IMG/VR virus record: IMGVR_UViG_3300026549_002379
DNA from: an uncultured virus (IMG/VR IMGVR_UViG_3300026549_002379)
Lineage: Duplodnaviria; Heunggongvirae; Uroviricota; Caudoviricetes
Strand: one strand, 5' to 3'
DNA length: 64,000 nucleotides
The position numbers and the translations under genes are program-made. The notes below the pieces were generated by a model that had not been told where the DNA came from, made no database searches, and saw only the letters and a program-made list of their open reading frames with translations. This document shows, piece after piece, positions 704 to 31,323 of this stretch (positions are counted from its first letter, which is position 1; each line of letters opens with the position of its first letter).

Positions 704-3616
704 TTACTCTCCTTCTGCCTTGTAGCGGCTATATGTGCTCACGACGAACTCCTTGATAGCGCTCGTCATCTTCGTAATCTTCAGAAGCCCCATGTGGTAT
801 GCGGACAGCCTCCTGCGGATGGCCTCCTCGGAGATGTTTCCTCCGAAGGTGTACTCCGAGAAGACGTCCAGCACATCCTTCGCATCGAGACCGTTGTCGT
901 AGGCGAAAGACTCAATCTCGGCCTGCAGGCTCTCGCGCTCGAACTGCTCGTATGCCTGCTGGATGTCCGCGTCGTCCGGCAACTCGTAGAAGCGCGTGCG
1001 GATGAACGCCTCCATGATGTCCTTCTTCGCGCGGAGCGCATCGTTGTCCGAGCGCTCAATCTCGCGCATCACCAGGTCGATGTCCCGCGCGCGCTCCTCG
1101 TCGGACTTCTCGGCGTCATGGGCCGACTTCAGCAGGCTCAGGATGTACATCACGTTGATGCGGTCCGTCCGCACCAGCTCCACGTCGAAATCGACGTCGA
1201 CGGGCACGGGAACCTTCGGGTCCCGTTTCTTCGCCTCGTCGTGGTAGTAGAGGTACCAGCTCTTGTAGCCCTCGTACTCTTCCTCGCCCAGCACGACAGA
1301 AAGGTCGTCCCAGTCGAACTTGCCGAAGGTCTTCAACGTCGCCAGCGTACCGGACAGCGAGCGGAACGCCACGACGAACTGACGGATGTCGCCCTCGCTC
1401 TGGAGCTGCCCCGCATCGTCGACGGTTTGAGCCGCCTTGCGCAGCGCGGGCACCTGGTTCACCCACTTGTTCACGTAATACTCGTAGCTCTCCAGCAGGT
1501 ACTCGTTCGGGTCCCCGTCGCCGGAGAACAGCCGCAGCGCATCGTCCTGCGCGCGCTTGATGTCGCGGTACGACACAATCTGCCCGAACTGCTTCGTCAC
1601 CTTGTCCACGCGGTTCGTTCGGCTGTACGCCTGCACCAGCGTGTGCCAGATGAGGTTCTTGTCCAGATACAGCGTGTTCAGCGGCTTGGCGTCGAACCCG
1701 GTGAGCATCATGTTGACCACCAGCAGGATGTCCACCTGCGGAAGGTCCTTCTGCTTCATGCGCCGCGTGATGTCCTTGCGGTACGCATCGAAGGAGTCCA
1801 GCGAGAAGGACGTGCCGAACATCGCGTTGTAGTCGTCCATGCAGCGCCCCAGAAGCTCCTGGGAGTGCTCGTCGCCGCCTTCGTCCATGTCCTCGTTGGC
1901 CTGGTACGTGAAGATTGCGGCCACGCGGTAGCGCTCGCCCTCCGGCCTCGCCTCGTTCAGTGCCTTGAACGCGTCGTAATACTTCCCGAGCGTCTTGATG
2001 GAATCGACCGCGAACAGCGCGGTGTAGATGTCCTTTCCCTGCGGGTGGACATGCTGCTCATGGTGCTCGAAGATGTCCTCCGCGATGACGCGGATGCGCT
2101 CGTCGTCGTGATACAGGGCGTCCAAATCGAGATTGTGGCGGCGGCAGTAATCCGGGTCGCCCAGGCGCTCGGGGTCGATGCCGTTCGCGGCGACCTGCTT
2201 CGCAAAAATCGTCCGCTGATACTCGACGGAGAACCGCAGGACGTTGCCGTCTGCGATAGCGTCCTTAATCATGTAGCGGTGCAGGCAGGCGTCCAGCTTC
2301 GAGCCCGCGTAGAACACGTCGGCGGTCGTCCTGCCATCCTTGCCCTTGTTCGCCTCGAAGATGGGCGTGCCGGTGAAGCCGATGTAGTTCGCGTTGCGGA
2401 AATGCCGCTGGATGTCGCCGTGCATCTTGCCGAACTGGCTGCGGTGGCACTCGTCGATGATGAACACGACCTTCTTGTCGCGGTACGAATCCATCAGCGT
2501 CTCGTAGCGCTTGCTCTTGACCGCGTTCGCCATCTTCTGGATGGTCGTCACGATGAGCTTGCGGTCCGCCTGCTTCAATTGCCTCACCAGCACGGCGGTC
2601 GAGTCCGAGCCGTCAACGCAGTCCTTCTCGAACGAGTTGTACTCGTCCACGGTCTGGTCATCAAGGTCCTTGCGGTCAATCAGGAAGATGACCTTGTCGA
2701 CCCTCGGCTCATCGCGCAGAAGCTGCGCCAACTTGAAGGACGTAAGCGTCTTGCCCGAACCGGTGCAGGCGAAGACGTACCCGTTCTGGTTGGAGTCCAG
2801 CACGCGACGCTTCGCCGCCTTCACGGCGAAAATCTGGTACGGCCGCATGACCATCAGCACCGGCTCGGTGGTCTTGATGACCATGTACTTGTCCAGCATT
2901 TCGGTGATGGTCGAGCGCCGCAGGAACTCGGCAGTGAACTCGTCCAGCTTGTTGATGCGCTTGTTGTTCTCGTCCGTCCAGAAGAACACCAGGCTCTTCA
3001 GAATCGGATTGTAGACGCCGCCGTCCATCTCGTTCTCGTTGCAGAAATACTTCGTCTGCACCGAATTCGACACGACGAACAGCTGCAAATAGCGGAACAA
3101 CCCCTTGAACGAGAACTTGCGGTAGCGGTTAATCTGGTTTATCGCCTCGTTTATCTCCACGCCGGGGCGCTTCAGCTCAATCTGGACCAGCGGAAGGCCG
3201 TTGATGAGAATCGTCACATCGTAACGGTTCTTGTACGAAACGTCGTCCTTGTGGTCCTTGTCCATCGTGACCTGGTGCGTCACCTGGTAGATGTTGCGGT
3301 CGGTATCGGAGCTGAAGAAATCCAGATACACGGTCCGACCGTTATCCAGCGTCAGGACGTACTTGTCGCGCAGAATCTTCGCGGACTCGTAGACGCTGTG
3401 GTTGTCCACATGAATCATCACGCGGCCGAACTCTGCGTCCGAGAAGGCGGCTTCCCCCTTCGCCTCAACCAGCTTGGGCGCATTGAACGCCTCGAGCTGC
3501 TTGCGGAAATTCGCCACAACGTCGTCGTAGTTCGACATATCGACGAACTCATAGCCAATGCTCTCAAGCCTGTCTATGAACAGGTTCTCGACATCGTATT
3601 CTGATATATGAGCCAT
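704..3616 (-). CDS. hsdR: Type I restriction endonuclease subunit R
   Basis: 970 aa; nuclease motif DVTILINGLPLVQIELK, Walker A TGSGKT, DECHRSQ, FTGTP, MLTGFDA, QAYSRTNR. Confidence 0.96.
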   Translation of the reverse strand: MAHISEYDVENLFIDRLESIGYEFVDMSNYDDVVANFRKQLEAFNAPKLVEAKGEAAFSDAEFGRVMIHVDNHSVYESAKILRDKYVLTLDNGRTVYLDFFSSDTDRNIYQVTHQVTMDKDHKDDVSYKNRYDVTILINGLPLVQIELKRPGVEINEAINQINRYRKFSFKGLFRYLQLFVVSNSVQTKYFCNENEMDGGVYNPILKSLVFFWTDENNKRINKLDEFTAEFLRRSTITEMLDKYMVIKTTEPVLMVMRPYQIFAVKAAKRRVLDSNQNGYVFACTGSGKTLTSFKLAQLLRDEPRVDKVIFLIDRKDLDDQTVDEYNSFEKDCVDGSDSTAVLVRQLKQADRKLIVTTIQKMANAVKSKRYETLMDSYRDKKVVFIIDECHRSQFGKMHGDIQRHFRNANYIGFTGTPIFEANKGKDGRTTADVFYAGSKLDACLHRYMIKDAIADGNVLRFSVEYQRTIFAKQVAANGIDPERLGDPDYCRRHNLDLDALYHDDERIRVIAEDIFEHHEQHVHPQGKDIYTALFAVDSIKTLGKYYDAFKALNEARPEGERYRVAAIFTYQANEDMDEGGDEHSQELLGRCMDDYNAMFGTSFSLDSFDAYRKDITRRMKQKDLPQVDILLVVNMMLTGFDAKPLNTLYLDKNLIWHTLVQAYSRTNRVDKVTKQFGQIVSYRDIKRAQDDALRLFSGDGDPNEYLLESYEYYVNKWVNQVPALRKAAQTVDDAGQLQSEGDIRQFVVAFRSLSGTLATLKTFGKFDWDDLSVVLGEEEYEGYKSWYLYYHDEAKKRDPKVPVPVDVDFDVELVRTDRINVMYILSLLKSAHDAEKSDEERARDIDLVMREIERSDNDALRAKKDIMEAFIRTRFYELPDDADIQQAYEQFERESLQAEIESFAYDNGLDAKDVLDVFSEYTFGGNISEEAIRRRLSAYHMGLLKITKMTSAIKEFVVSTYSRYKAEGE

Positions 3617-3631
3617 AGGCCGCCACCTCCC

Positions 3632-3895
3632 TTACTTGTCTTCTCTGTGTTCCGCGACCCACTCGTGGATAATCGCGGCAATCGTCGTCTCGCGCTCCGC
3701 CGCCATCATCTTCAGCGCCTTCTTGTCGCTCACCGTGAGCGACAGCGAGAGCGTGGTGCGCTTCTCGTCCTCGGCGGACGCTGCGCCCGCCGAAACCGTT
3801 GTCTGCTTCGCAGCCGCCGGTTCAGAAACCGTCTGCTCTATCTTCTCCTGCTCGGCCTCGCGGTCGGCAGCGTATTTCTCGAACATATTCGCCAT
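3632..3895 (-). CDS. Ribbon-helix-helix DNA-binding protein (ParG/CopG-like)
   Basis: C-terminal TTLSLSLTVSDKKALKMMAAERETTIAAIIHEW beta-alpha-alpha pattern; RBS AAAGGAGG before ATG 3895; follows a parA remnant. Confidence 0.75.
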   Translation of the reverse strand: MANMFEKYAADREAEQEKIEQTVSEPAAAKQTTVSAGAASAEDEKRTTLSLSLTVSDKKALKMMAAERETTIAAIIHEWVAEHREDK

Positions 3896-4995: not shown

Positions 4996-5562
4996 TCATG
5001 CTCGCCTGGATGTAATCGTTGCTGGATGTAATCGTTGTACATCTCTTAGAGCTCTTAGAACTCTCTGCATTGTCAGTACTCTCGGTGCTTGCGCTGCCTT
5101 CCTTGCTGGTATCATGCGTAGACTTCTCGCCGGAAACGTTCCGCTGCTGCTGTTCCACAGGAGACATGGTGCCCCGCTCGTATCCTCGACGCCATGCACC
5201 ATGCGCATGTACTCGGCGTACTCCGGGTCCTGTATCATCGCCTTGCGCTGCTTGAACTCCTCGTACGTCAGCGTGCGAGGCTGCTTCGACCGCTTGCAGG
5301 CCATCAGGCCGCAAACCGCGCTCGCGGTCCAAAGCCCGAGTGTGAAGAAAAGCAGACCGATAATCGCACAACCGATGCCGACCCCGCCAAGCGCAATAGC
5401 CGTCGTCTGTCGATTTGAAACGCCACGGACAAGACCGACGACTGAAGCAATCGCGCCGACAAGGCCGAACGCAATCACCACGATGAGAACGCTCCCACCG
5501 GAGGCCATGAAGCCCCTCATGAACGCGTCCCAATTCCAAGTTGCTACCACCAAATCACTCAT
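4996..5562 (-). CDS. Hypothetical membrane protein; 3' end probably scrambled by a duplicated fragment
   Basis: RBS AAGGAGG, two hydrophobic segments; 3' part overlaps the 99-bp repeat. Confidence 0.45.
   Translation of the reverse strand: MSDLVVATWNWDAFMRGFMASGGSVLIVVIAFGLVGAIASVVGLVRGVSNRQTTAIALGGVGIGCAIIGLLFFTLGLWTASAVCGLMACKRSKQPRTLTYEEFKQRKAMIQDPEYAEYMRMVHGVEDTSGAPCLLWNSSSGTFPARSLRMIPARKAAQAPRVLTMQRVLRALRDVQRLHPATITSRRA
5043..5141. repeat. 99-bp exact direct repeat, copy 1 (copy 2 at 48713-48811)
   Basis: ctcttagagctcttagaactctctgc...cgccggaaacgttc is identical at both positions. Confidence 0.95.
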
Positions 5563-19994: not shown

Positions 19995-22900
19995 TTAGTC
20001 CACAAGGCCCTCACCGGACTGCTTGGACATCTCCTTGGCCTTGCGCTCGATGTCCGAGACGTCAATGCCATCACGCGTCTTCTGCTGGCGCTTGTGTCCG
20101 TCCTCGAGCGTGTCGCTCTTCGTAAACGCACGCATCGTGCGTCCCTCGGCACGCTCGTCGCCGGCTGCACGCTGCTCTGCCAGACGCTCGTTCGCACGCA
20201 TCTTGTTCGGCATGAACTCATGGTCGCAACGACCCTCGAAGAGGTCCATGCCCTTGCCATCGTTCGCATCGGCGATGTCGCAAAGCGTCTGGAAGTTACC
20301 ACCATAGGCCATACGGTCCAGAGGAGCCACCAGGTCCTTGCGTACGCTCTCATCCTCGATGTTGCGCATCACGCCGTTATCGTCTGCCATCACATCGGCA
20401 ACCTGCTTCAGCCACTTCTCGTTGATGGACACGTTCAAGCCATTGTCCGCCGTGGAGCTAGTGTACATGTCCCTGAAGGACTTGACCCACTCATCCCTCG
20501 TCGCAAGGGACGGCTTTCCGTCACCATCCCTGGCAACCTGCCACTGATTCTTCTCGTCACGACGAACCAGATATCCACGCCACAGGTTGCGTACCGGCGA
20601 CTGAAGCAGCCGATACTTCACCTCTGCCTCCTCGGCACTGTGCTTGACCTGCAGGAGCGATTGCGTAACAGGACGCGTCAGCTCCAGAACCGCCGTCGGA
20701 CACTCATTACGAAGCGCCGACATCGCTCTCTGCGAATAGCCGCCACCGATGCCCGTACCGAACGACTTCGTAGCCGTTGCGTACATGACATCCTCCTGGT
20801 CCTGACGCGTCGCAAGCGTATGGCCGGTGTCGCGAATCTTCGAGTAATCTATTGCGTCCGCGCCCTTGTCATCAATGGCAAGTCCTGCCCACTTTGCATA
20901 GGTGCGAACCTTGTTGTAGTTACCCTTTGCCCCGGTCTCGACGCAGGCCTCGACCACTGACTGGATGTGCTCCTGCACGCCATCGAAGCGAATGTACGAG
21001 GTTCCGCACTTGCCACTGAACGCCTTGTGATACGCGTCATTCAGCCGCTGCACATAGCCTTCCTTGATATCATCGTCCAGGTCAGCCCATGCAGGCACCG
21101 CATCGTCGCGCTGGGCATTGTTCAAATCACCGATAATGCCCTCGAACTCGCTCTTCAGCGACGGGTCATTGTGCTCGGCAACCTTGACGTCCAGCGACTC
21201 CTGGAGACCAAGCTCCATGTTGCCATGCTCGTCTGCCGCACCGTAGTCCAGCAGATTCTCCTTGATGGAGAACAGGTGCTCCGCCTCTGCCTTCGCACGA
21301 GGGTCATGCAGATTGACAACGGCAACGGTATCGCCATCGAAGTCGCCATCGAACGGCTTGTCAACCGCAGGATTGATGGACACGCCGGTAAGCGAGTCAT
21401 CAATCTTCACGCGCATATAACGAACGCCGGAGTCACGCAGAACAGGGTCACGCCAAATCAGCGCCTTGTCGCCGTCCTTCAGACCGATGGTGTCAGCCAT
21501 CACGCGACCGATGGCAATCTCGTCGATATCCAGACGCGGGTCCTCAGACCAGATGGACGTAGCCGAGTTCGGCATGCGGTGTCCCATGATGTCGTCACGG
21601 AAGATGTTATGCTTTCCCTCGAACTGACGGGAAGCCACGCCATCCATAATCACGTCGTACTGAGACTGGGCGTCGCTCTGGCACTCCGCCATCTTAGCCT
21701 CGTCACCGTGCGCCTGTGCATCACGGTAATTGCAGGCATCCATGAAGATGCGCTCGTACTGATGCGTCCAGTCATGCGTCGTGGACGTACCGTCCTCGAA
21801 CGTCTGACCGCTGCGCAGATAAGAGCTCATGACAGGAAGACCCCAGGTCACCTTGTCATCGTTCACGCGCTGCGTGCTCGCGTCCGTATGACGATGCACG
21901 GTCGTAGGACGGACATAGGTGCCATCCTTTCTTGTATAGCCCTTGCGCGTCCACTCCTCTGCCTTGTAGACAACGTCCGTATGACCGTCGTTCAGCGGAG
22001 GCAGCGGGTCACCCGTCTTGTACTTCAGCTCGAACGGCAGCTCCATGATGCCGCCCTCGAACATGACCTTGTCATGATACTGGCGGGTCATCTCCCTGGT
22101 ATCCAGTGTCATGCCTGACTTCGTCTCATGATAGACCAGCTCGGGCATCTCGAAGACCTTGCGCTTCTCGCCCTCATGAGGCTCGTATCCGCGATGGATG
22201 CGGCCGGTTTCGTCGATGTCCAGACCACACGTAATCAAATACTCCCTGAGGTTCGTGACAGGCGCGGAGTTCGAACCGTAGCACTCGCGCATGATGGAAT
22301 CGGCACCCTTAGAGTTAAGTGCCCACGCCAGCTGGGCGGACGCCTTACGACCACGGCCCTCGGCCAGCTCCTCATCATCATAGATATGCGTCTTCGTATC
22401 CGCCGACTTATCGGTGATAATCATGTTCAGCTCGCCAAGGGCACCCTTCAGCGTCTCGCCATCAGGCGACTTCAGGTCACTGACCTCGCCATCCATAATC
22501 TCGCGCATTGCTCCTGCGTTGAAACGCGAAGGCGCAGAGAACGGAGCCATGACGACATCCATGTCAGGGTTGGCCTTGAACCATGCCCATTGCTCGTAGA
22601 TGCCCTCCTTGCGGGCTTCCTCCTCGGACATGTCAGGGTCAACGACCAAGGACACGACGCCCTTGTTGCCATGCATGTCGGAAATCTTGTCGCCCTTGAC
22701 GAGACCGCGCAGCTGGCCGCTGCGGTTCCGCATCTTGTTCGCCTCGGCGAAACGCTTGGACACGACCATGCCGTCGTCCATGTTCCATCCGCCGAAATCC
22801 ATCAGCGCAACCTTCGTCTTCTTCGTAATCGAAGAGGCCTGTGTGATATTCGAGAACGCCATGTTCTGACGGTCGAACGGGTCATAGGACGCATACTGCA

Positions 22901-25661
22901 TTATCGGATGCGCCATGATGGCACACCTCGCGTTCTTGTCAGCCGACGGATGAATGAAGCCATTCTCGTCCACATGCGTGCCTTCCACCAGATACCGCAG
23001 GGTGCCCTGGTTCGTCGTCGTCGCCGTGGAGGCTATCGGGTCGAAGTATCCATCGCTCGCCTCGTTCATGACGGCCATGTTGCGACCGCCGGTCAGTGCC
23101 GGAGCATCCGTACCGTTCGTATTGGCAACATCCAGAAGACCACGCTCCATCTGATACTGCATGTACAGTGTGGAGCCGTCGCGAATGTCGTTCGAATAGC
23201 GAACACGCTGAGACTCCGTCTTCACAATCGCGTCAATCATGTCCTGGGACATGCCCTGCTCGCGATACTGCTGCTCGAAATCAAGGTCATGCCTTGCGTC
23301 ATACAGACCGCGATACGCGCCATTAAGAGACGTCGGAACGCCAAGCGCATCGCCGCCCTTGCGATACCAGGAAATGTCAGTACGAACCTGATAGGCAATG
23401 GCCTCGCGCATCGTCTGCTCATAGCCACGAAGTCTCGTGCGCTCTTCGACGGACTTGTGCTCGCCAGGCTTCTGCGGCATGATGTTCGCCTCATAGCCGG
23501 GAACGAAGGCATAGTTATCGGACGCGTTGTAACCAGTCGCAACAACGCCGCGGGCGTCAGGCTCGAAAATCTGGCCAAGCTCGCCTTCGACATGCTCCGT
23601 CTGGGCACTGCTCTGCGTCGGCGTCAGCTCGCCCGACCAGCGCACGATGCCATGGCCGTCAATGCGAATGCCGGCATCAGGCCCGTCGAACATAACGCCG
23701 TTCTGCTCCAGACTCGTGCGAATCGCACCGTACATGCTCTGCATGAACGGCGACGTCTTCGTGCTCATATCCACAGAACCGGGGAAGTCGAACTTCACGA
23801 GCTTGTCGCGCACCTGGTCGCAATAGAAGTTGTCTCCACGCACATCGTCCTTGTCCATGCCAAGGATGCGCATGGCCTTCACGATATCGTCCGTGTTCCG
23901 ATACTGGTTGAAACCGTTCGTGTTGTACTGTGCCACGCCGACAGGATTGAAACGCGTGCCATCCGGCCCCTTCTCATAGGTGCCGATGTTGGCCTCCACG
24001 CAATCCGCCGCATGGGCACGGATGATTTCCGCAGGAGTCATCCCTGCGCTGTCGTACATCTTGGACTGCAGGTTCACCTGCGTCAGCCCCGCGTCGACCA
24101 CGTTCTCCGTCTCGTACTCGCCTGCCTCGGAGAGCTCCGTCAGGAACTCCTCCTCGTCGACGCCAGGACGAAGCAGCGTCGTCCGACGACCTTCCAGAAG
24201 GTCGATATAGGACGACTGAATTGCCGCGATGTTCGGGTCGCCAGAGAAAGTCGGAGCCCAACCATCCTCGGTATGATGAGCCTCCCAGTCTGCCACCAAT
24301 GCATCGGCACCAAGCGCCTCGGCATATGCCCGACGGGCGGACGTCACGGCACCGCGCAGATACTCGTCAGCCGCCTCCGGCGTCAACATCGACGTCGTGG
24401 CCGAATTGCCGTTCTTTCTGAGCATCGTCACGGCATAGTTGCCATCCTTCTTGTACATCGCCGAATAGCCTGCTCCATGATAGACGGAATTTGCTGCCAC
24501 CCGGCGGCCCTTGCCGTTGATGATGGTCTCGCGACCTGCCTCTCCGACATAGCCCCTGCCATCACCACGCGGCACCTGCTCGCCAAGAGCGAACCTCACG
24601 AGCTGCAGAGACTCCTCAGCCGTTGGAACATAGGTCTTAGCACGTCTGCTGGTAGCCGACTCACGCTCCGTCGTACTGAACGTGTACTGAGCACCGCCAT
24701 TGCGGTCGTATGCCTTGCCGATGAAGGCCTCGGAACCCTCTTTCTCAGTGACACGCACCTCGACGCGCGTACCGTCAATGCACGCCTTAATCTGGCCGGG
24801 GAACGTGTCCCTCTGGATTTTATAGGTACGGCCCTCGTCACGAAGACCCGCCAGAATATGAACACTGCGGTCCATTGCCTCACGGCGAGCTCGGACAGCC
24901 TGTGCCGAACGCGCACCAGTGTTCATGCCCTCGTTCGCCCACTGACGAACGTTGTTGTACTCGGCCTCCGTCATGTAAGGACGCAGCCGGACGACGCCGC
25001 TGATATCGTCCTCGGACATCATCATCTTGCCCGTCGGATTCACGATGATATTGCCACTCGCCGTGTCACGGACGCTGGAAATCTGCACGGTCTCGCCCGT
25101 TGCCGGGTCCATCGCCTGCTGCAGGGAATCGGCATCCTCTCCGCGAATGCCGCCCATCTGCGACCCGAGGTCCAGCACTGACGCACGGTCGGCGATACGA
25201 GGGTCATACGGCGAAATCGGATAAAAATTCCCCTGCTTGATTTCCAGGGCCCCATCCCGGTTCATCGCCTGATGAACCCATGCAACGGAATCCTTGACCA
25301 CTTTCGAAGAGCCGAAGACCCGATTCCGCTCAACAGGGCCATCTGCCTTGAAGATGTCATATCCCGGAATCTGAATACGGTTCTGCAACACCGACTTTAC
25401 CGCGCTGCATGCGGAACCAAGCGTCGCGTCGTCAAAACCATGCCTGAAGCCCTTGTCATAATTCTTGTTCTTGGCAGGGTCGTTCTGCCATGCCAGAAGC
25501 CGACGCTCGACCTCACGACGAAGCGCCCGTGCCTCTGTCGTGGTGATAAGGTCGGGCGCCTGCTTGTTGACCTCCTGCTCCATGGCATTGTAATCATGCA
25601 CAATCTGCCAGAACATGCGCTCGTACACCGCACGCGTGCAATCCTGTTTGGTAATCTTCAT
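19995..25661 (-). CDS. Single-polypeptide two-barrel (double-psi beta-barrel) RNA polymerase, beta+beta'-like
   Basis: In order: DRQNMAFSNITQA, GGWNMDDGMVVS, GDKISDMHGNKGVVS, PDMDVVMAPFSAPSRFNAG (beta-like), then WRDPVLR and NPAVDKPFDGDFDGDTVAV (beta'-like DxDGD). Confidence 0.9.
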   Translation of the reverse strand: MKITKQDCTRAVYERMFWQIVHDYNAMEQEVNKQAPDLITTTEARALRREVERRLLAWQNDPAKNKNYDKGFRHGFDDATLGSACSAVKSVLQNRIQIPGYDIFKADGPVERNRVFGSSKVVKDSVAWVHQAMNRDGALEIKQGNFYPISPYDPRIADRASVLDLGSQMGGIRGEDADSLQQAMDPATGETVQISSVRDTASGNIIVNPTGKMMMSEDDISGVVRLRPYMTEAEYNNVRQWANEGMNTGARSAQAVRARREAMDRSVHILAGLRDEGRTYKIQRDTFPGQIKACIDGTRVEVRVTEKEGSEAFIGKAYDRNGGAQYTFSTTERESATSRRAKTYVPTAEESLQLVRFALGEQVPRGDGRGYVGEAGRETIINGKGRRVAANSVYHGAGYSAMYKKDGNYAVTMLRKNGNSATTSMLTPEAADEYLRGAVTSARRAYAEALGADALVADWEAHHTEDGWAPTFSGDPNIAAIQSSYIDLLEGRRTTLLRPGVDEEEFLTELSEAGEYETENVVDAGLTQVNLQSKMYDSAGMTPAEIIRAHAADCVEANIGTYEKGPDGTRFNPVGVAQYNTNGFNQYRNTDDIVKAMRILGMDKDDVRGDNFYCDQVRDKLVKFDFPGSVDMSTKTSPFMQSMYGAIRTSLEQNGVMFDGPDAGIRIDGHGIVRWSGELTPTQSSAQTEHVEGELGQIFEPDARGVVATGYNASDNYAFVPGYEANIMPQKPGEHKSVEERTRLRGYEQTMREAIAYQVRTDISWYRKGGDALGVPTSLNGAYRGLYDARHDLDFEQQYREQGMSQDMIDAIVKTESQRVRYSNDIRDGSTLYMQYQMERGLLDVANTNGTDAPALTGGRNMAVMNEASDGYFDPIASTATTTNQGTLRYLVEGTHVDENGFIHPSADKNARCAIMAHPIMQYASYDPFDRQNMAFSNITQASSITKKTKVALMDFGGWNMDDGMVVSKRFAEANKMRNRSGQLRGLVKGDKISDMHGNKGVVSLVVDPDMSEEEARKEGIYEQWAWFKANPDMDVVMAPFSAPSRFNAGAMREIMDGEVSDLKSPDGETLKGALGELNMIITDKSADTKTHIYDDEELAEGRGRKASAQLAWALNSKGADSIMRECYGSNSAPVTNLREYLITCGLDIDETGRIHRGYEPHEGEKRKVFEMPELVYHETKSGMTLDTREMTRQYHDKVMFEGGIMELPFELKYKTGDPLPPLNDGHTDVVYKAEEWTRKGYTRKDGTYVRPTTVHRHTDASTQRVNDDKVTWGLPVMSSYLRSGQTFEDGTSTTHDWTHQYERIFMDACNYRDAQAHGDEAKMAECQSDAQSQYDVIMDGVASRQFEGKHNIFRDDIMGHRMPNSATSIWSEDPRLDIDEIAIGRVMADTIGLKDGDKALIWRDPVLRDSGVRYMRVKIDDSLTGVSINPAVDKPFDGDFDGDTVAVVNLHDPRAKAEAEHLFSIKENLLDYGAADEHGNMELGLQESLDVKVAEHNDPSLKSEFEGIIGDLNNAQRDDAVPAWADLDDDIKEGYVQRLNDAYHKAFSGKCGTSYIRFDGVQEHIQSVVEACVETGAKGNYNKVRTYAKWAGLAIDDKGADAIDYSKIRDTGHTLATRQDQEDVMYATATKSFGTGIGGGYSQRAMSALRNECPTAVLELTRPVTQSLLQVKHSAEEAEVKYRLLQSPVRNLWRGYLVRRDEKNQWQVARDGDGKPSLATRDEWVKSFRDMYTSSTADNGLNVSINEKWLKQVADVMADDNGVMRNIEDESVRKDLVAPLDRMAYGGNFQTLCDIADANDGKGMDLFEGRCDHEFMPNKMRANERLAEQRAAGDERAEGRTMRAFTKSDTLEDGHKRQQKTRDGIDVSDIERKAKEMSKQSGEGLVD

Positions 25662-26176: not shown

Positions 26177-27332
26177 TCATCCCATCAACTGCCTTGCCAT
26201 AATGTCATCAAAGCGCCCGTTCGCGAACTTACGCCAGTTCTGCTGCCCGACAAGGAACCGCAGGAACTCGTCAGTCACCTTGAAGGTTCCGAACTGTTCG
26301 CCGACATTCTCATCCTCAGAGTACACACGGCTTCCCTGCTCATGCGCGGCCTCGTTCAGCTTCTGCAGCTCCGCAGAGGACGTCGCACACACGATGTACG
26401 GCTCATTATTCAGACCATACAGAGAGCCATCCCTCGTAGTAAAGAACTGATGGTCCTGCCACATGTCGCCCTTGCACTCCTGGTAGGCCTTGATGATTTC
26501 ACCATCCAGACTGTGGTTCGGATTGCCGTCGATACTGACAAAGTCCTCCTTCGCACACATGCCATGGGCATAGCGACGTTCCGACCAATCCCTCTGCTTT
26601 CCGGCCGTCTCCTGCGTAGCCTTCATCTGCTCCTCATTGTCTTCGGCCTGCTCGAAGAACGAATCGTCGTCGCGCTGACCCTCCAGGTACTGGCTGACGT
26701 CCTCGATATCATCGACACCGCCGGCGTCTTCCTGCATGGACGCATTGATGACTTCCATGATTTCGGCCGCATACAGGTCAGGGTCAAGCTGCTCGACCTG
26801 ATACTCCGTATAATCATAGATGCTCATATAAGCCTCACGAGCATCCTCTGCGGCCAGAGCCTGCTTCATACGCTTGTCAAGCATCTTGCCGAAGTCAGGC
26901 TGGTTCTTACGCACATCGAACTCCTTTGCCGAAGACAGCGTAGGAATCGTCTGGAACGTGTAGTCATGCCCAGGCTGCTTGATATCGTGCGCACGCAGAC
27001 GCCAGGACATCGGCAGGATGGTCTCGTTACGGTTCCAGATAGGCGAGTCGCCCGCACGGAACACGATGGAGTTACGCGGCGAAATGAACGCCATGTCATT
27101 GTACGAGATGACAGGCACCTCCTGTGCCGTCATCGTGTACGACGTCTTGCCCTCGTTACCGGACAGGTTCTGGAACACGGCCTCCGTGTCTCTCGTAATC
27201 GTCTTGGAGTTCGTGAACACCTTGTGCGTCGTACCAGACATCTTCTGCAGGGTATCCAGCATCGAGTCATCCGTCGACTTCAGGAAGACGATATTGCTTG
27301 TATTTCCTTGGACGACCTTATCCACGGAGTCT
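26177..27332 (-). CDS. virD4: VirD4/TraG coupling protein, exon 2
   Basis: DSVDKVVQGNTSNIVFLKSTDDSMLDTLQKMSG continues the TraG-D C-terminal motif that exon 1 leaves at QTLQQLRDVYG. Confidence 0.88.
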
Positions 27333-27999
27333 CAATGTCTCGAAAACCGAATAGAGAATCATTGAACTGTGTTTTGATGTCATCCTCGCTACGATTATTG
27401 CGACAATCCAATTCAATGAGCCGAATATGACGTTTTTCCGCATATTCTCGTTTCATACGGTCATGCTCCTGTTGGATTCGAAAATATGCCTCTCCGCCAA
27501 AGACGTCAACAGGACGATAATGCTGTTCTCCTTGACACTCAATCAAGACCCGAGTGCCGTCCTTTAATCGAACATCAAAATCGTAAGACAACAGCCCTCC
27601 GCCCGTTCCGATAAGACTCGGAAACGAACGCTGTGCCGTATAATTCAATCCGGCCTCGGCAAGCCACTCCGAAACCCTCAATTCATATTTTGAAGGTCCT
27701 TTACCACGAGCCATACTTTCAACACGAGCGCATCCGCAAGACATCGTATGACCGTTTCTAAGACTCGTTCCTCGAACAAGTACCGTTCGACCACAATCGC
27801 ATTTGCATATCCATCTGATATAACGAGTGCCTTTTTTCGTGATTTCATCATCGCCACGCGACACGACTGTCAGACTTCCGAATCGACGCCCAATCATATC
27901 TGGGATACGCAACTGTTTCTTTCGACAACCGCATGATTTCGTATGACCGTTCACCAAAGATGAACCGCGCGTGACAAATTCTTTACCGCAATCTGTCAA
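27280..27999 (-). CDS. Intron-encoded putative homing endonuclease (Cys-rich repeats + Vsr/DUF559-like nuclease domain)
   Basis: Two CG...GHTxSCGC repeats, then YDFDVRL...LIECQGEQHY...QEHDRMKREYA; lower GC than flanks; TTG start. Confidence 0.75.
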   Translation of the reverse strand: MTDCGKEFVTRGSSLVNGHTKSCGCRKKQLRIPDMIGRRFGSLTVVSRGDDEITKKGTRYIRWICKCDCGRTVLVRGTSLRNGHTMSCGCARVESMARGKGPSKYELRVSEWLAEAGLNYTAQRSFPSLIGTGGGLLSYDFDVRLKDGTRVLIECQGEQHYRPVDVFGGEAYFRIQQEHDRMKREYAEKRHIRLIELDCRNNRSEDDIKTQFNDSLFGFRDIETPWIRSSKEIQAISSS

Positions 28000-28459
28000 T
28001 AATTCTCTATTCGGTTTTCAAAGAACAGTTTCACATGTTCGCAACACATGCTCCGTGTTATATCACGGCACCCCCGTTACAGGGCGTGGACTGACTATAT
28101 GTCAACCCCGCACCGCTTTCGCGGCCGCTGAGCCACCTATTTTTCGCCGACCGCATATGCTTCGGTCGCTACAGGGACGTCATCCCTTAGTCGATGAGCG
28201 TTACCCGGCTCTTACGCTACGGGCATTCGCAACCAAACAGACCCTTGTCATCGCCGACGAGGAACCCAAACGTGATGTCAGGGCTTTTATTGCATCCTGT
28301 ACGGCATCCTCGAACTTCTTTCTGCTTTCGCTCCTTCGCGCTTGTCGTTTCCAACTACGCTGTGGCATCGAGGCTCTTGAGGCCCGTGTCAAGGTTTTAA
28401 CTGGTGTAATGATACGCACACATTACATGTACGCAGAGACTCGTCTATTTGACATCACT
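27333..28459 (-). mobile_element. Group I intron (IA-like) interrupting virD4
   Basis: P7 GACUA (28192-28188)/UAGUC (28097-28093), P4 CCUUG/CAAGG, P3 CACC/GGUG, two hairpins between P7 and P3', P8, terminal G at 27333; removal restores the reading frame YG-DSVDK. Confidence 0.85.
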
Positions 28460-31323
28460 CCATACACATCGCGCAATTGCTGCAGAGTCTGCAGAATCAA
28501 TGTGAACTGCTGCTCCTGGCCAAGGCCGATGGAAAGCATCGTCTCGAAGCCACTGATGCCATGCCCCTCAGACTGCAGGTTGCCCAACTCGTCGAGCATG
28601 AACCTCGTCTTGTACAAAGGCTTCTGGTTGCCCTTCGTCATGTACGACTGGTCGAAGTTCAGGTCGACCAGCTGCTTGATGAGAATCAGAATCAGCTTCG
28701 CGTACTTCATCAGATGAGGCGGCGTGACCAGGAACACGACCTTCGGCTTCTCGGAGTACCGGAGCATGAACTGCGTAATCGCATGTGCCCGCACGGTCTC
28801 CTTATGAGCGTTGGCCGAGATGTCCTTCATCTTGACCGTCTTGAACGTCACATGGCCCTTCTTGTAGACGACCTTGCCGTCCTTGCTCTTCACAGGACGA
28901 AGCTCCGTCATAATGCCGTCGCGCACAATCTTCTCGCCGAGGACAGGGTCCTTGACATAGGCGCGGCCATCAAGCGTGGTCGCATAGGACTTCTGGAACC
29001 TGAAATAGAACGTACGCACCAGCTGGCTTGTCTGAGGATTGCGAATCTCGCACTTCAGATAGGCTACATCCGTCGGGAAGATTCCCTTGAAATAGAACCT
29101 CGCCCAACCAGCACGGTTAATCAGGTCCTCATGATAGAAGTCCTTGCCCATAGGCTTCGTGAATCCCCTGTCCTCATATGCCTGCCACACGCACTGCATA
29201 CCGGTCAGGTGATAGCGCTTGATGAAATCGGCGCTCATGCGGAAGCCGAGACGACGCGGGAACGACAGACCCGCCAAGTCCACGTTCTGACTCGGCGTGC
29301 CACTGGTCAAAGTGGAAATCGTCGGGTCGGTGAAGAAGGACATGGCCGTAATGGCAATTCCGTAGACGGAAGCCATCATCTTCTCAGCGCCGGCCATAGA
29401 ACGCAGAGCATTGTTCGCATTGCTCACGAGCGTACGCATCTGGTTCTTAGGCAAGGCATCCGTCGCATTGAAGTACAGGGTCAGCAGGTCAATCTCCGGC
29501 TTGTCCTCCCAGAGCTTCGACTGTGCCGTCGCCTCCTGGAGCTTCGCCTCGTACTCATCGTCCGAGAGCGAATCGAACTCATGATTCTTGGCCTTCTTCG
29601 TGAACTCCAGGGCGGGGTTCTTCAGCTTCTTGGACGTCAACTGAACGAACAGCTGATAGCAGTTATACAGCGTGACATGTCCCCACATCGCGTCGAGCTT
29701 CGTCTCCAGCGTCTTCGGGTCCATGTGCGTCCGCTCCGCCATATTACGAAGCTCGGCCTCTTCCTCAAGGTAGTAGTCGATGAGACCGTAGGCAGCACGC
29801 TTGAACGCATTGTTTGCGGCATTCGGCCACACAGGGTCGTCGCCGCCATCCAGCGGGAAGAACACGTCCGCGATATTCTCGACGTACATTGCCACCTTCG
29901 TGAAGTCGCCCTCACGCGCCGACTGCGCCGCCATCATCAACGGATTGTAAATATCCGTGTTCATGGCGTTAATCAGATTGAACTGCACGACCTGGAAATC
30001 ACGATACGTCGCGGCAACATAGAACTTCTGCAGAAGCTCGCCCTTAGGGTCGTTGATAACGATGTTGTTCGGCCTGCGCTCGCGAAGCCACATGTCAATC
30101 GTCGGCTCGATGACCGTCTGGCCCTTACCTGCACGAGTGATAGCCAGGACCATCGTGTTGACCGGGTCGATGTCCACGAGATAGGCGCCGGCAGGACGCT
30201 GCGTCTCGTACTCCGGAATCACCCAGTCGCCGTTAATCATGTCAGCCACCGTGTCATAGCCCTTCAGCTTGTCACGGTTGGCGTTCTTCGGATTGTAGGG
30301 AATCTTCGTCGGGTCGTAATATTTACGAAGCGTCTTGTCCTTCGGAAGCCCGGAAGCCTCGAACAGGGACTCCATGAAATCCTTGTCGAACATCGGCTTC
30401 GTCTCCATCAGGGCATTGCCGTCATCATCCCGAAGGATTTCGCCCTTCAGGTACTCGATGTCGCCGTCCTCGTCAAGGATGTCCTTGTCCGCACGCCTTG
30501 ACACCTGTACAGGGTTGATGCCCTTGTTCAGAAGAGCCACATGCGAAATCATGCTGGACGGCTGGACGCTCGAATGGGCACCCGCATCAGGGAACCAGTC
30601 GAACTTCCGCATGACCTCCTCAGGCAGGGCGATATGCTGGTCGTTATGGTACTGGTTGATGTCTGACGTGTCGTTCATCATGTTCTGTGCAGCCAGGTTA
30701 CGCATCATCTTCGTATATACGATAAGAAAGACGATGAGCCACGTAATCAGCGACAAAAGGAACTTCACCAGACGGAACGTCCCGAACTCCTTCCAGAACG
30801 CAGCAAGACCGCCATTGTCCTGCTTCGACGAACTTCCGGACGCGTTCTTTGCATTCTGCATGTCAACATACCACTGCGGTTTGGGAACCTGGTCTATACT
30901 GCCCCACGTTTCTGAAGACAACGTATGCTTATCAGGGTCAGTTATCTGATAGCAATACACCATTCCTCCCCTGGTCGTTTGAATCGTATAGTCGTTCGGC
31001 TGCGAAATCGTATTCACATCCGTAAGGCCATACTCCTGCTTCAGCTCATCGGTCTGGCTGCTCACAACGACTCCGGTGCTCCCCATCGTTCCCGTATCGC
31101 TCTGAAACGCGCCGATTGCCAGGGCACCCGCTGACGCGAGAAGCCACATCACCAGCGCCGCGAACAGTGCAACCACAACGGAGAAGATGATACGCCACGT
31201 CGGCGTCTGCTTCTCCTGAATGGTCGAACGTTCCAGCTGCTGGTCTTCGTACACGTCACGATACTGCATCGTGTCGGCATTGCTCTGCTTGCTGAGCCTC
31301 TGCCAATTTGTCTTCTTGGCCAT
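28460..31323 (-). CDS. virD4: VirD4/TraG coupling protein, exon 1 (spliced product about 1339 aa)
   Basis: Two N-terminal TM helices, Walker A-like AITRAGKG, NDPKGEL, Walker B FMLDELGNL, LILQTLQQL. Confidence 0.92.

Follow-up and report, generated by a model that had tools for sequence, protein, structure and literature searches.

A group I intron interrupting a coupling protein gene on a cattle-gut conjugative element is probably cut after G at a G-C pair

We analyzed a stretch of DNA of 64,000 nucleotides (the window; IMG/VR record IMGVR_UViG_3300026549_002379, filed as an uncultured virus), in which a gene for a VirD4/TraG-type coupling protein (Pfam PF02534, PF10412 and PF12696) is interrupted. 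Unspliced, its minus-strand frame runs ..CAA TTG CGC GAT GTG TAT GGA and continues with GTG ATG TCA .. to a TAA stop. The interruption is very probably a 1127-nt group I intron of IA2 type with an IStron-lineage ribozyme and an endonuclease as cargo, located in a coupling protein gene from cattle gut and cut after G28458, which pairs with C28438. Such a G-C 5′ splice site, already proposed in a first-pass annotation made from the sequence alone, is supported because protein homologues need the ligated product YGDSV, RNA contigs carry the joint, and the helices P1 and P10 covary in eight introns. The interrupted gene is composed as follows (all positions are those of the window):

28458–31323, minus strand: exon 1 of the coupling protein gene, 3′ end ..GAT GTG TAT GGA G (Pfam, homologues and RNA joint).
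27331–28457, minus strand: group I (IA2-type) intron, 1127 nt, starting UGAUG and ending UUGAG (RNA joint and related introns).
26177–27330, minus strand: exon 2 of the coupling protein gene, opening AC TCC GTG GAT AAG (frame, homologues and RNA joint agree).

Among the best 120 coupling-protein homologues, 91 contain ..QQLxxxYG[DE]xxD[KR] without interruption and read YG[DE]SVDK across the joint. A read-through such as VMILSTNRVAAYL follows just after YG in 15 of the 120, and the other 14 are truncated or broken at other places. At the nucleotide level, 46 of 80 metagenome loci have the strict uninterrupted motif, all 46 with GGN|GAN at the site. Four loci are interrupted at YG and 30 lie outside the strict motif pattern, most of these with the DSVDK motif exactly at the end of the preceding homology match. 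Ligated exons read TAT GGA GAC TCC, i.e., YGDS.

RNA data were assembled contigs from four metatranscriptome runs (X3, X4, X5 and X7; two samples, two studies), placed on positions 26900–28900. In X3, X4 and X7, contigs connect 27330 directly with 28458 and lack the 1127 nt in between; the joint, ambiguous by 3 nt, reads ..TATGGAG + ACTCC... The X7 contig (8520 nt) covers 431 and 443 nt on either side of the joint with zero mismatches. The product YGDSV is demanded by the protein homologues and exactly matched by this RNA joint. Neither GGA GTA GAC nor GTG TAC TCC, the sequences by which the first-pass annotation would have recognized a U-ending 5′ exon, was read in the contigs. Positions 28444–28457 were joined to exon 1 in no RNA contig, a gap that we did not count as evidence; the 3′ junction is covered. 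In X5, which shares its sample with X4, a contig connects 27338 with 28458 and lacks 1119 nt. It uses a cryptic 3′ site after G27339, 8 nt upstream in a duplicated GAGAC, and the frame is shifted.

27331–27339, minus strand: terminal G of the intron (27331) and cryptic terminal G (27339) in the duplication GAGAC..GAGAC (RNA joints).

Junctions with a U-ending 5′ exon were ruled out by frame, homologues and the RNA joint. As had been worked out in the annotation, an exon end at U28462 reaches a TGA or shifts the frame, U28464 gives GTG TAC TCC with loss of Gly-Asp, and U28457 together with G27333 inserts a Val. A cut at U28462, which would place a conserved U.G (position −5, counted from our cut) at the splice site, is moreover excluded because the RNA contigs retain G28461. 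The triplet GAG stands at both ends (28460–28458 and 27333–27331), which makes the junction ambiguous by 3 nt at the DNA level, as had been remarked; the four possible junctions hence yield one mRNA, and none has a U-ending 5′ exon.

Both exons face an internal guide in the intron:

28458–28462, minus strand: exon side of the P1 core (UGGAG, −5 to −1); pairs with 28434–28438; last exon base G28458.
28434–28438, minus strand: P1 part of the internal guide, CUCUG, with C28438 opposite the last exon base (covariation).
28439–28442, minus strand: P10 part of the internal guide, GAGU; pairs with ACUC (27330–27327) at the start of exon 2.
28442–28454, minus strand: P1 extension hairpin UGUC/GACG with loop AAAUA, beyond a 3×3 internal loop (read by eye).

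The longer guide stretch described in the annotation, 28442–28427 on the minus strand (GAGUCUCUGCGUACAU), is present. As described, exon positions 28469–28460 (AUGUGUAUGG) are paired with 28436–28427 in nine of ten places, with A28463.C28433 as the exception and four G.U pairs, and AGACUC (27332–27327) pairs with GAGUCU (28442–28437) as a P10. We judge the pairing to be more than chance, because the same columns pair in seven related introns with compensatory changes, which answers the covariation check on P1 that the annotation had put forward. The five P1 core columns are paired in 7/7 aligned introns bar one cell, and position −2 covaries. For the P1 extension, RNAfold of 28457–28439 gave its three inner pairs, and same-site relatives have UGAUUU/GAAUCG there (by eye).

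Related introns at the same site decide on the register of the cut. Their 5′ end is TATGGC|GTGATG in L009, L016, L019 and L014, and the 3′ ends are ..CT|GAC in L009, ..CA|GAC in L016 and ..TT|GAC in L019. They permit a shift by 1 nt only, and as an intron ending in G requires an exon ending in G, they point to the register 28458/27331 in the window. It is likely that exon 1 ends at G28458, that the intron spans 28457..27331 and that the 3′ exon begins at A27330, i.e., 2 nt downstream of the cut given in the annotation; we infer this choice between two G-ended registers of the window copy from the sequence comparison. Of the junction proposed in the annotation, the G-C pair at the cut and the mRNA stand, since the spliced mRNA is identical and the cut lies at a G-C pair in both registers. 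Its register, 28460/27333, does not, as the relatives fit only 28458/27331.

We then compared P1 and P10 in eight introns at four sites of this one gene (window, L009, L014, L016, L019, L059, L060 and L090). The three other insertion sites lie after GGATTGGGG (L059), AGTATCGGG (L060) and CTCAGAG (L090, Evansella clarkii DSM 8720). The pairs found at each P1 position were:

Position −1: G-C in 8/8.
Position −2: A-U in two, C-G in four, G-C in two.
Position −3: G-C in 8/8.
Position −4: G.U in six, A-U in one, unpaired in one.
Position −5: U.G in seven, C-G in one.
Position −6: mismatch in 8/8.

In the P1 core, 39 of 40 cells are paired. A U.G wobble at the 5′ cut was found in none of the eight introns, all of which have G-C there, and no U-ended junction fits the RNA joint. 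P10 consists of 4–8 contiguous pairs in 7/7 introns, adjoins P1 on the next guide base and tracks each 3′ exon: it is ACUC/GAGU at the window site and has 6, 8 and 5 contiguous pairs at the other three. The terminal intron base is G in all seven introns with a 3′ end (L014 comes without one). The first intron base (+1) is U in seven introns and A in one (L090). Opposite it stands U at the window site, G in both L059 and L060, and again U in L090, where the two form A-U.

A short P1 formed by exon UGGAG (28462–28458) and guide CUCUG (28434–28438) probably sets the 5′ site, with the cut after G28458. The pair at the cut is then Watson–Crick G28458-C28438 and not U.G; a conserved tandem of wobbles, U.G/G.U, is found at −5/−4. 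The 3′ site is probably set by the terminal G27331 and a 4-bp P10 (ACUC with GAGU, 28439–28442) adjoining P1. The chemistry is presumably the usual guanosine-initiated reaction in two steps.

A second RNA species was found at this locus:

28019–28444, minus strand: 426-nt circular RNA contig, most likely joint G28019 to A28444.

A self-closing contig of 456 nt occurred in 4/4 RNA runs from both samples; it leads from 28443 back to 28018, i.e., 426 nt with a 2-nt ambiguity, covers the ribozyme core and is abundant. We favor the joint G28019–A28444 because it is the only one of three possible joints with a terminal G. G28445, which itself follows an A, stands just ahead of the attacked bond, and this AG can pair with guide bases C28438 and U28437 like the exon. 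G28019 lies a few bases past the P9.2 hairpin, where in the alignment the L090 intron, which has no open reading frame (ORF), has its terminal G. Most simply, the circle would arise with G28019 in the G-binding site: cleavage on its 3′ side would free a 3′-OH that attacks after G28445. The endonuclease cassette and its 24-bp stem may be a later addition downstream of a former 3′ end, whose terminal G28019 would still enter the G site and yield a circle of the core only.

Several points weigh against our assignment. RNA evidence comes from assembled contigs, and the G-capped 5′ end of the excised intron, the sole base-exact evidence, was not seen. The P4–P5 region (28393–28234) is only partly modelled, and for the Tetrahymena ribozyme, laboratory experiments reportedly found much lower activity when the pair at the cut is not a wobble. 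Rfam RF00028 had no match in the window at E up to 10, nor in four related loci; the annotated Twort terminase introns in L002 escape this model as well (E up to 1), and its silence at the window intron is therefore a weak test. Moreover, RNA libraries may contain DNA, and an intron-less DNA allele is formally possible. The joined contigs would in that case stem from this allele without any RNA splicing, and the intron copy would be a split or dead gene; the joined form was compared in RNA runs only. We regard this as highly improbable. Contig depths in X3 are far from uniform over the locus (exons 376 and 833, core 204, ORF part 31.7; contig means, to be taken as a rough guide), the 1119-nt joint in X5 would have to be a frameshifted allele, the circular core contig in 4/4 runs has no DNA explanation, and the covariation of P1 and P10 argues for selection for splicing. 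A group II intron was rejected, as Rfam gave no group II hit in the window and an exon ending with the Gly codon gives the intron ends A, U, A and U across copies. An intein was rejected as well, as the read-through hits a stop after nine codons.

If splicing does occur, the cut might still be placed differently. The same intron in the register of the first-pass annotation would leave exon 1 ending at G28460, paired to C28436, with the intron at 28459..27333 and AGACUC/GAGUCU as P10. This gives the same mRNA in the window copy owing to the 3-nt ambiguity, and its P10 is longer there than in our register (6 bp vs 4), which counts against our choice; two intron-guide pairs past the cut are also common in group I introns. 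We nevertheless consider it unlikely: L009, L016 and L019 have a GGC codon and T, A and T, respectively, before GAC, so that the required 3′ exon is absent and the intron is not G-ended. Also, the guide base opposite the third Gly codon position covaries (A-U here, C-G in four relatives), hence this pair belongs to the exon P1. With similarly low probability, the ribozyme might still read a U.G wobble and cut one base upstream of it, U(+1) being paired with a guide G. This shifted U-G was raised for group B IStrons by Tourasse et al. (2014; PMC4227781), and U is the first intron base in 7/8 introns, facing G in L059 and L060. However, U(+1) faces U in the window and the four same-site relatives, and L090 starts with A. 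Moreover, the guide base tracks the first 3′ exon base through P10, which explains its identity without U(+1). We hence retain the cut after G28458 at a G-C pair.

The ribozyme core was modelled on an alignment of seven sequences (A4) with the helices P1, P2, P3, P4, a three-helix peripheral module, P6, P6a, P7 and P7.1. The parts in the window are:

28406–28426, minus strand: P2 hairpin, 92.9% of cells paired.
28399–28405, minus strand: P3 5′ strand, partner 28135–28141; 3/6 pairs with changes on both sides, 100% of cells paired.
28308–28373, minus strand: peripheral module with helices Ha, Hc and Hb (GAAA loop), then the A-rich strand GCGAAAGCAGAAAGAAGU (covariation alignment).
28198–28234, minus strand: P4 3′ strand (28231–28234; partner 28393–28396), P6 and P6a; P4 is read here with a one-column shift.
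28188–28194, minus strand: P7 5′ strand, U[C]GACUA, its bracketed C bulged beside a G-C pair; partner 28092–28097.
28146–28187, minus strand: P7.1 (28173–28187) and P7.2 (28146–28169), between P7 and the P3 3′ strand (alignment; RNAfold for P7.2).
28020–28133, minus strand: P8 (28104–28133), P7 3′ strand and the hairpins P9, P9.1 and P9.2 (RNAfold of sub-regions and alignment blocks).

On A4, 98.4% of 370 cells pair, compared with 87.2 ± 1.0 in shuffles, and 24 of 53 pairs have changes on both sides, compared with 10.9; none of 500 shuffles reached either value. In a control with partners slid by 1–3 columns, pairing was 31–44%. Changes on both sides occur in 2/3 pairs of P6 and in 1/6 pairs of P7, the first pair of which is U-A in six sequences and C-G in one; in P7.1, 3/5 pairs covary. 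P7.2 has another sequence in relatives and is still a hairpin there (by eye). P4 as CCUUG/CAAGG fits four sequences, fails in L009 and was rejected; as AACC/GGUU it covaries in L009 and L060. J8/7 (UGACAUA) directly precedes the P7 3′ strand at 28092–28097, and P7 crosses P3, which is the group I pseudoknot. UCGACUA and GACAUAUAGUC presumably correspond to the R and S consensus of group I introns, which we take them to resemble. The peripheral module is also found in IStrons and in phage introns. By its predicted layout, the ribozyme is group I and of subgroup IA2 type, where the assignment within IA follows the description in PMC4227781.

The part of the intron behind the core holds the cargo:

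27280–27999, minus strand: intron ORF, 239 amino acids, TTG start; PHROG homing-endonuclease families 559, 9084, 374 and 7140.
27996–28019 (5′ arm) and 27342–27365 (3′ arm), minus strand: 24-bp stem from an inverted-repeat search (24 nt, 96% complementary).

The stem loops out 630 nt with the ORF, which starts inside the stem and ends in exon 2, beyond the 3′ splice site. At the DNA level the ORF is similar to the phage Twort intron-encoded protein B. Pfam gave no hit on it, and no IS607/IS605 transposase or TnpB cargo was found; with PHROG homing-endonuclease cargo and neither transposase nor TnpB, the window intron is therefore not an IStron. Cys-rich repeats of the GHT.SCGC type number two in the window copy vs four in relatives, and judging from its sequence the ORF may be in decay. 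In some same-site relatives, a TTGACA/TAGACA box, a 17-nt spacer, a TATAAT-like box and a ribosome-binding site precede the endonuclease ORF (L009 ~2020–2050, L016 ~5295–5325, L019 ~2530–2560). The endonuclease there seems to own an intron-internal promoter, which the window copy does not have.

To place the ribozyme in a lineage, we used a 45-nt pattern of the peripheral module, which matched 22 loci in Bacillota genomes. Four of these, chosen for a long ORF after the ribozyme, were tested, and all four encode TnpB, hence they are IStrons. They start GGG|TAAC.. or GGAGG|TAAC.., have the guides CCCUG or CCUCC, and align with the window intron through guide, P3, module, P6, P7 and J8/7. On this alignment, we assign the window ribozyme to a lineage that also forms group B (IS607-type) IStrons. 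According to PMC4227781, group B IStrons insert after GG-ending sites, with G as last exon base and U as first intron base, whereas for known group I introns the last exon base is given as "virtually always a U (or exceptionally a C)". Their ORF is enclosed by an inverted-repeat stem of 15–34 bp, and their U-G pair is described there as lying one bp off, with an internal loop after it. For BcISt1, reverse transcription PCR confirmed the G-ending exon, and full-length and partial circles were found (PMC4227781; Tourasse, Stabell and Kolsto 2014). Splicing after G is thus a published trait of the lineage and is not new here. The window intron differs in its endonuclease cargo, its conjugation host gene and a U(+1) that is not opposite G.

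Compared by description with group B IStrons such as BcISt1 from the Bacillus cereus group, the window intron likewise has a 5′ IA2-type ribozyme and a 3′ cargo ORF in an inverted-repeat stem (24 bp here). It also has a G-rich target (UGGAG|U), G as last exon base, U as first intron base, a terminal G, and circles in vivo. In contrast, its cargo is homing-endonuclease-like and does not consist of IS607/IS605 transposase genes, and it occupies a conserved host site (one gene, fixed codons), the pattern expected of homing and not of transposition. Moreover, it ends in GAG and not CGG, 15 of 23 pairs of its stem are A-U and not >80%, and its U(+1) faces U, which misfits the picture of a shifted U-G. 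The same source mentions an IS-less group IA2 intron of Turicibacter sanguinis with the homing site GGAGG (PMC4227781). By this description only, it resembles the window intron in being IS-less with a group B IStron-like ribozyme at a GG-ending site; unlike the window intron, it is said to have no inverted-repeat stem-loop.

Among phage introns, the IA2 introns of T4 td and Twort orf142 have P7.1/P7.2 between P7 and the P3 3′ strand, an extended P9, a protein-coding host gene and an endonuclease ORF looped out of a peripheral stem. The window intron shares these features. Unlike the window intron, both phage introns cut after U in a U.G pair. Truncated circles of Tetrahymena are circular forms of an excised group I intron. 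Unlike these and the published BcISt1 circles, the window circle would have an internal attacking G (G28019), 688 nt before the true 3′ end, and contains the core only, with the ORF left out.

As a tentative and rather doubtful extension, the lineage may have given up the cut-site wobble for a G-C pair at the P1/P10 boundary, docking instead through the tandem at −5/−4. In addition, the endonuclease-bearing members would use the old terminal G (G28019) as a programmed processing site that releases a stable circular ribozyme and, separately, a linear endonuclease message RNA.

In the literature, judged by titles and the starts of abstracts, we found no relevant report of group I introns in coupling proteins. 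The available parts of two reviews (PMC3984707, PMC11878797) contain no mention of splice-site exceptions. Pattern scans of IMG/VR gave one related intron (L003) and three chance coding matches (L005–L007), and none for the same-site pattern. In Alicyclobacillus phage KKP_3916 (L001), an unannotated related intron at ~2440–2830 seems to split a dnaE-like gene (coding sequences 1867–2472 and 2887–3894); a second, unrelated group I match lies at 414–642 (RF00028, 41.7 bits, below the gathering score). Splice sites read by eye, which we did not use, are possibly after C in L003 and probably after U in the Alicyclobacillus phage dnaE intron.

The window itself also encodes a MobL relaxase, a topoisomerase, a ClpB-like ATPase, a type I restriction R subunit and a TQ/SpaA surface protein. 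Because of the MobL relaxase, the coupling protein and the other genes, we read it as a Gram-positive conjugative element and not as a phage. DNA and RNA runs containing the element are labelled bovine gut. No match was obtained by blastn against plasmids or by megablast of 12 kb against phages. At 19995–25661 on the minus strand, a single protein of 1888 amino acids, with matches to two RNA polymerase domains (Rpb2 domain 6, Rpb1 domain 2) and with a DFDGD motif, is probably a fused beta/beta′-like polymerase on a conjugative element.

Further inserts were seen in homologues of the coupling protein gene, a hot spot into which different sorts of selfish elements have inserted. Just after ..VQGN, an insertion reading AQPLD..IATP.GW is present in P0040, P0051, P0053, P0060, P0072, P0076, P0077, P0091, P0099, P0100, P0104 and P0120, and the same insertion in loci L023, L024, L030, L040, L074, L077, L085, L086 and L088. 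It looks intein-like, and its first residue is mostly Ala, in a few cases Cys or Gly. Rfam group II domain V/VI matches (RF00029, 61.5 and 57.7 bits) lie at 1226–1310 in L014 and 1128–1212 in L019, upstream of the same-site group I introns; they are probably within the coupling gene, which would then carry both intron classes. Frame breaks within 25 codons of the site follow GQEQQF in P0001, P0018, P0062 and P0112, follow SIG in P0023 and P0028, and fall within LQTLQQL in P0010, P0025, P0083 and P0116. L060 has a second insert after LRD at ~2040, downstream of its first intron. In L103 (2400–3850) and L104, two head-to-tail ribozyme copies, separated by 437 nt, precede an intact exon, and a third copy sits at the YG site; for this third copy, no clean 3′ splice site was assignable in L103.

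Gene callers and intron finders depend on the U.G at the 5′ cut, which is treated as near-universal for group I introns. The window intron adds an endonuclease-carrying member from a conjugation gene, with RNA support from natural samples, to the one known lineage that breaks this rule. The four insertion sites in the gene are a natural mutational series, in which −2 and the whole P10 vary and the G-C at −1 is constant. Position +1 is not always U and mostly not opposite G, which bears on the question of a one-base-shifted U-G posed by Tourasse et al. Annotation pipelines will put such junctions one base off or call the gene broken.

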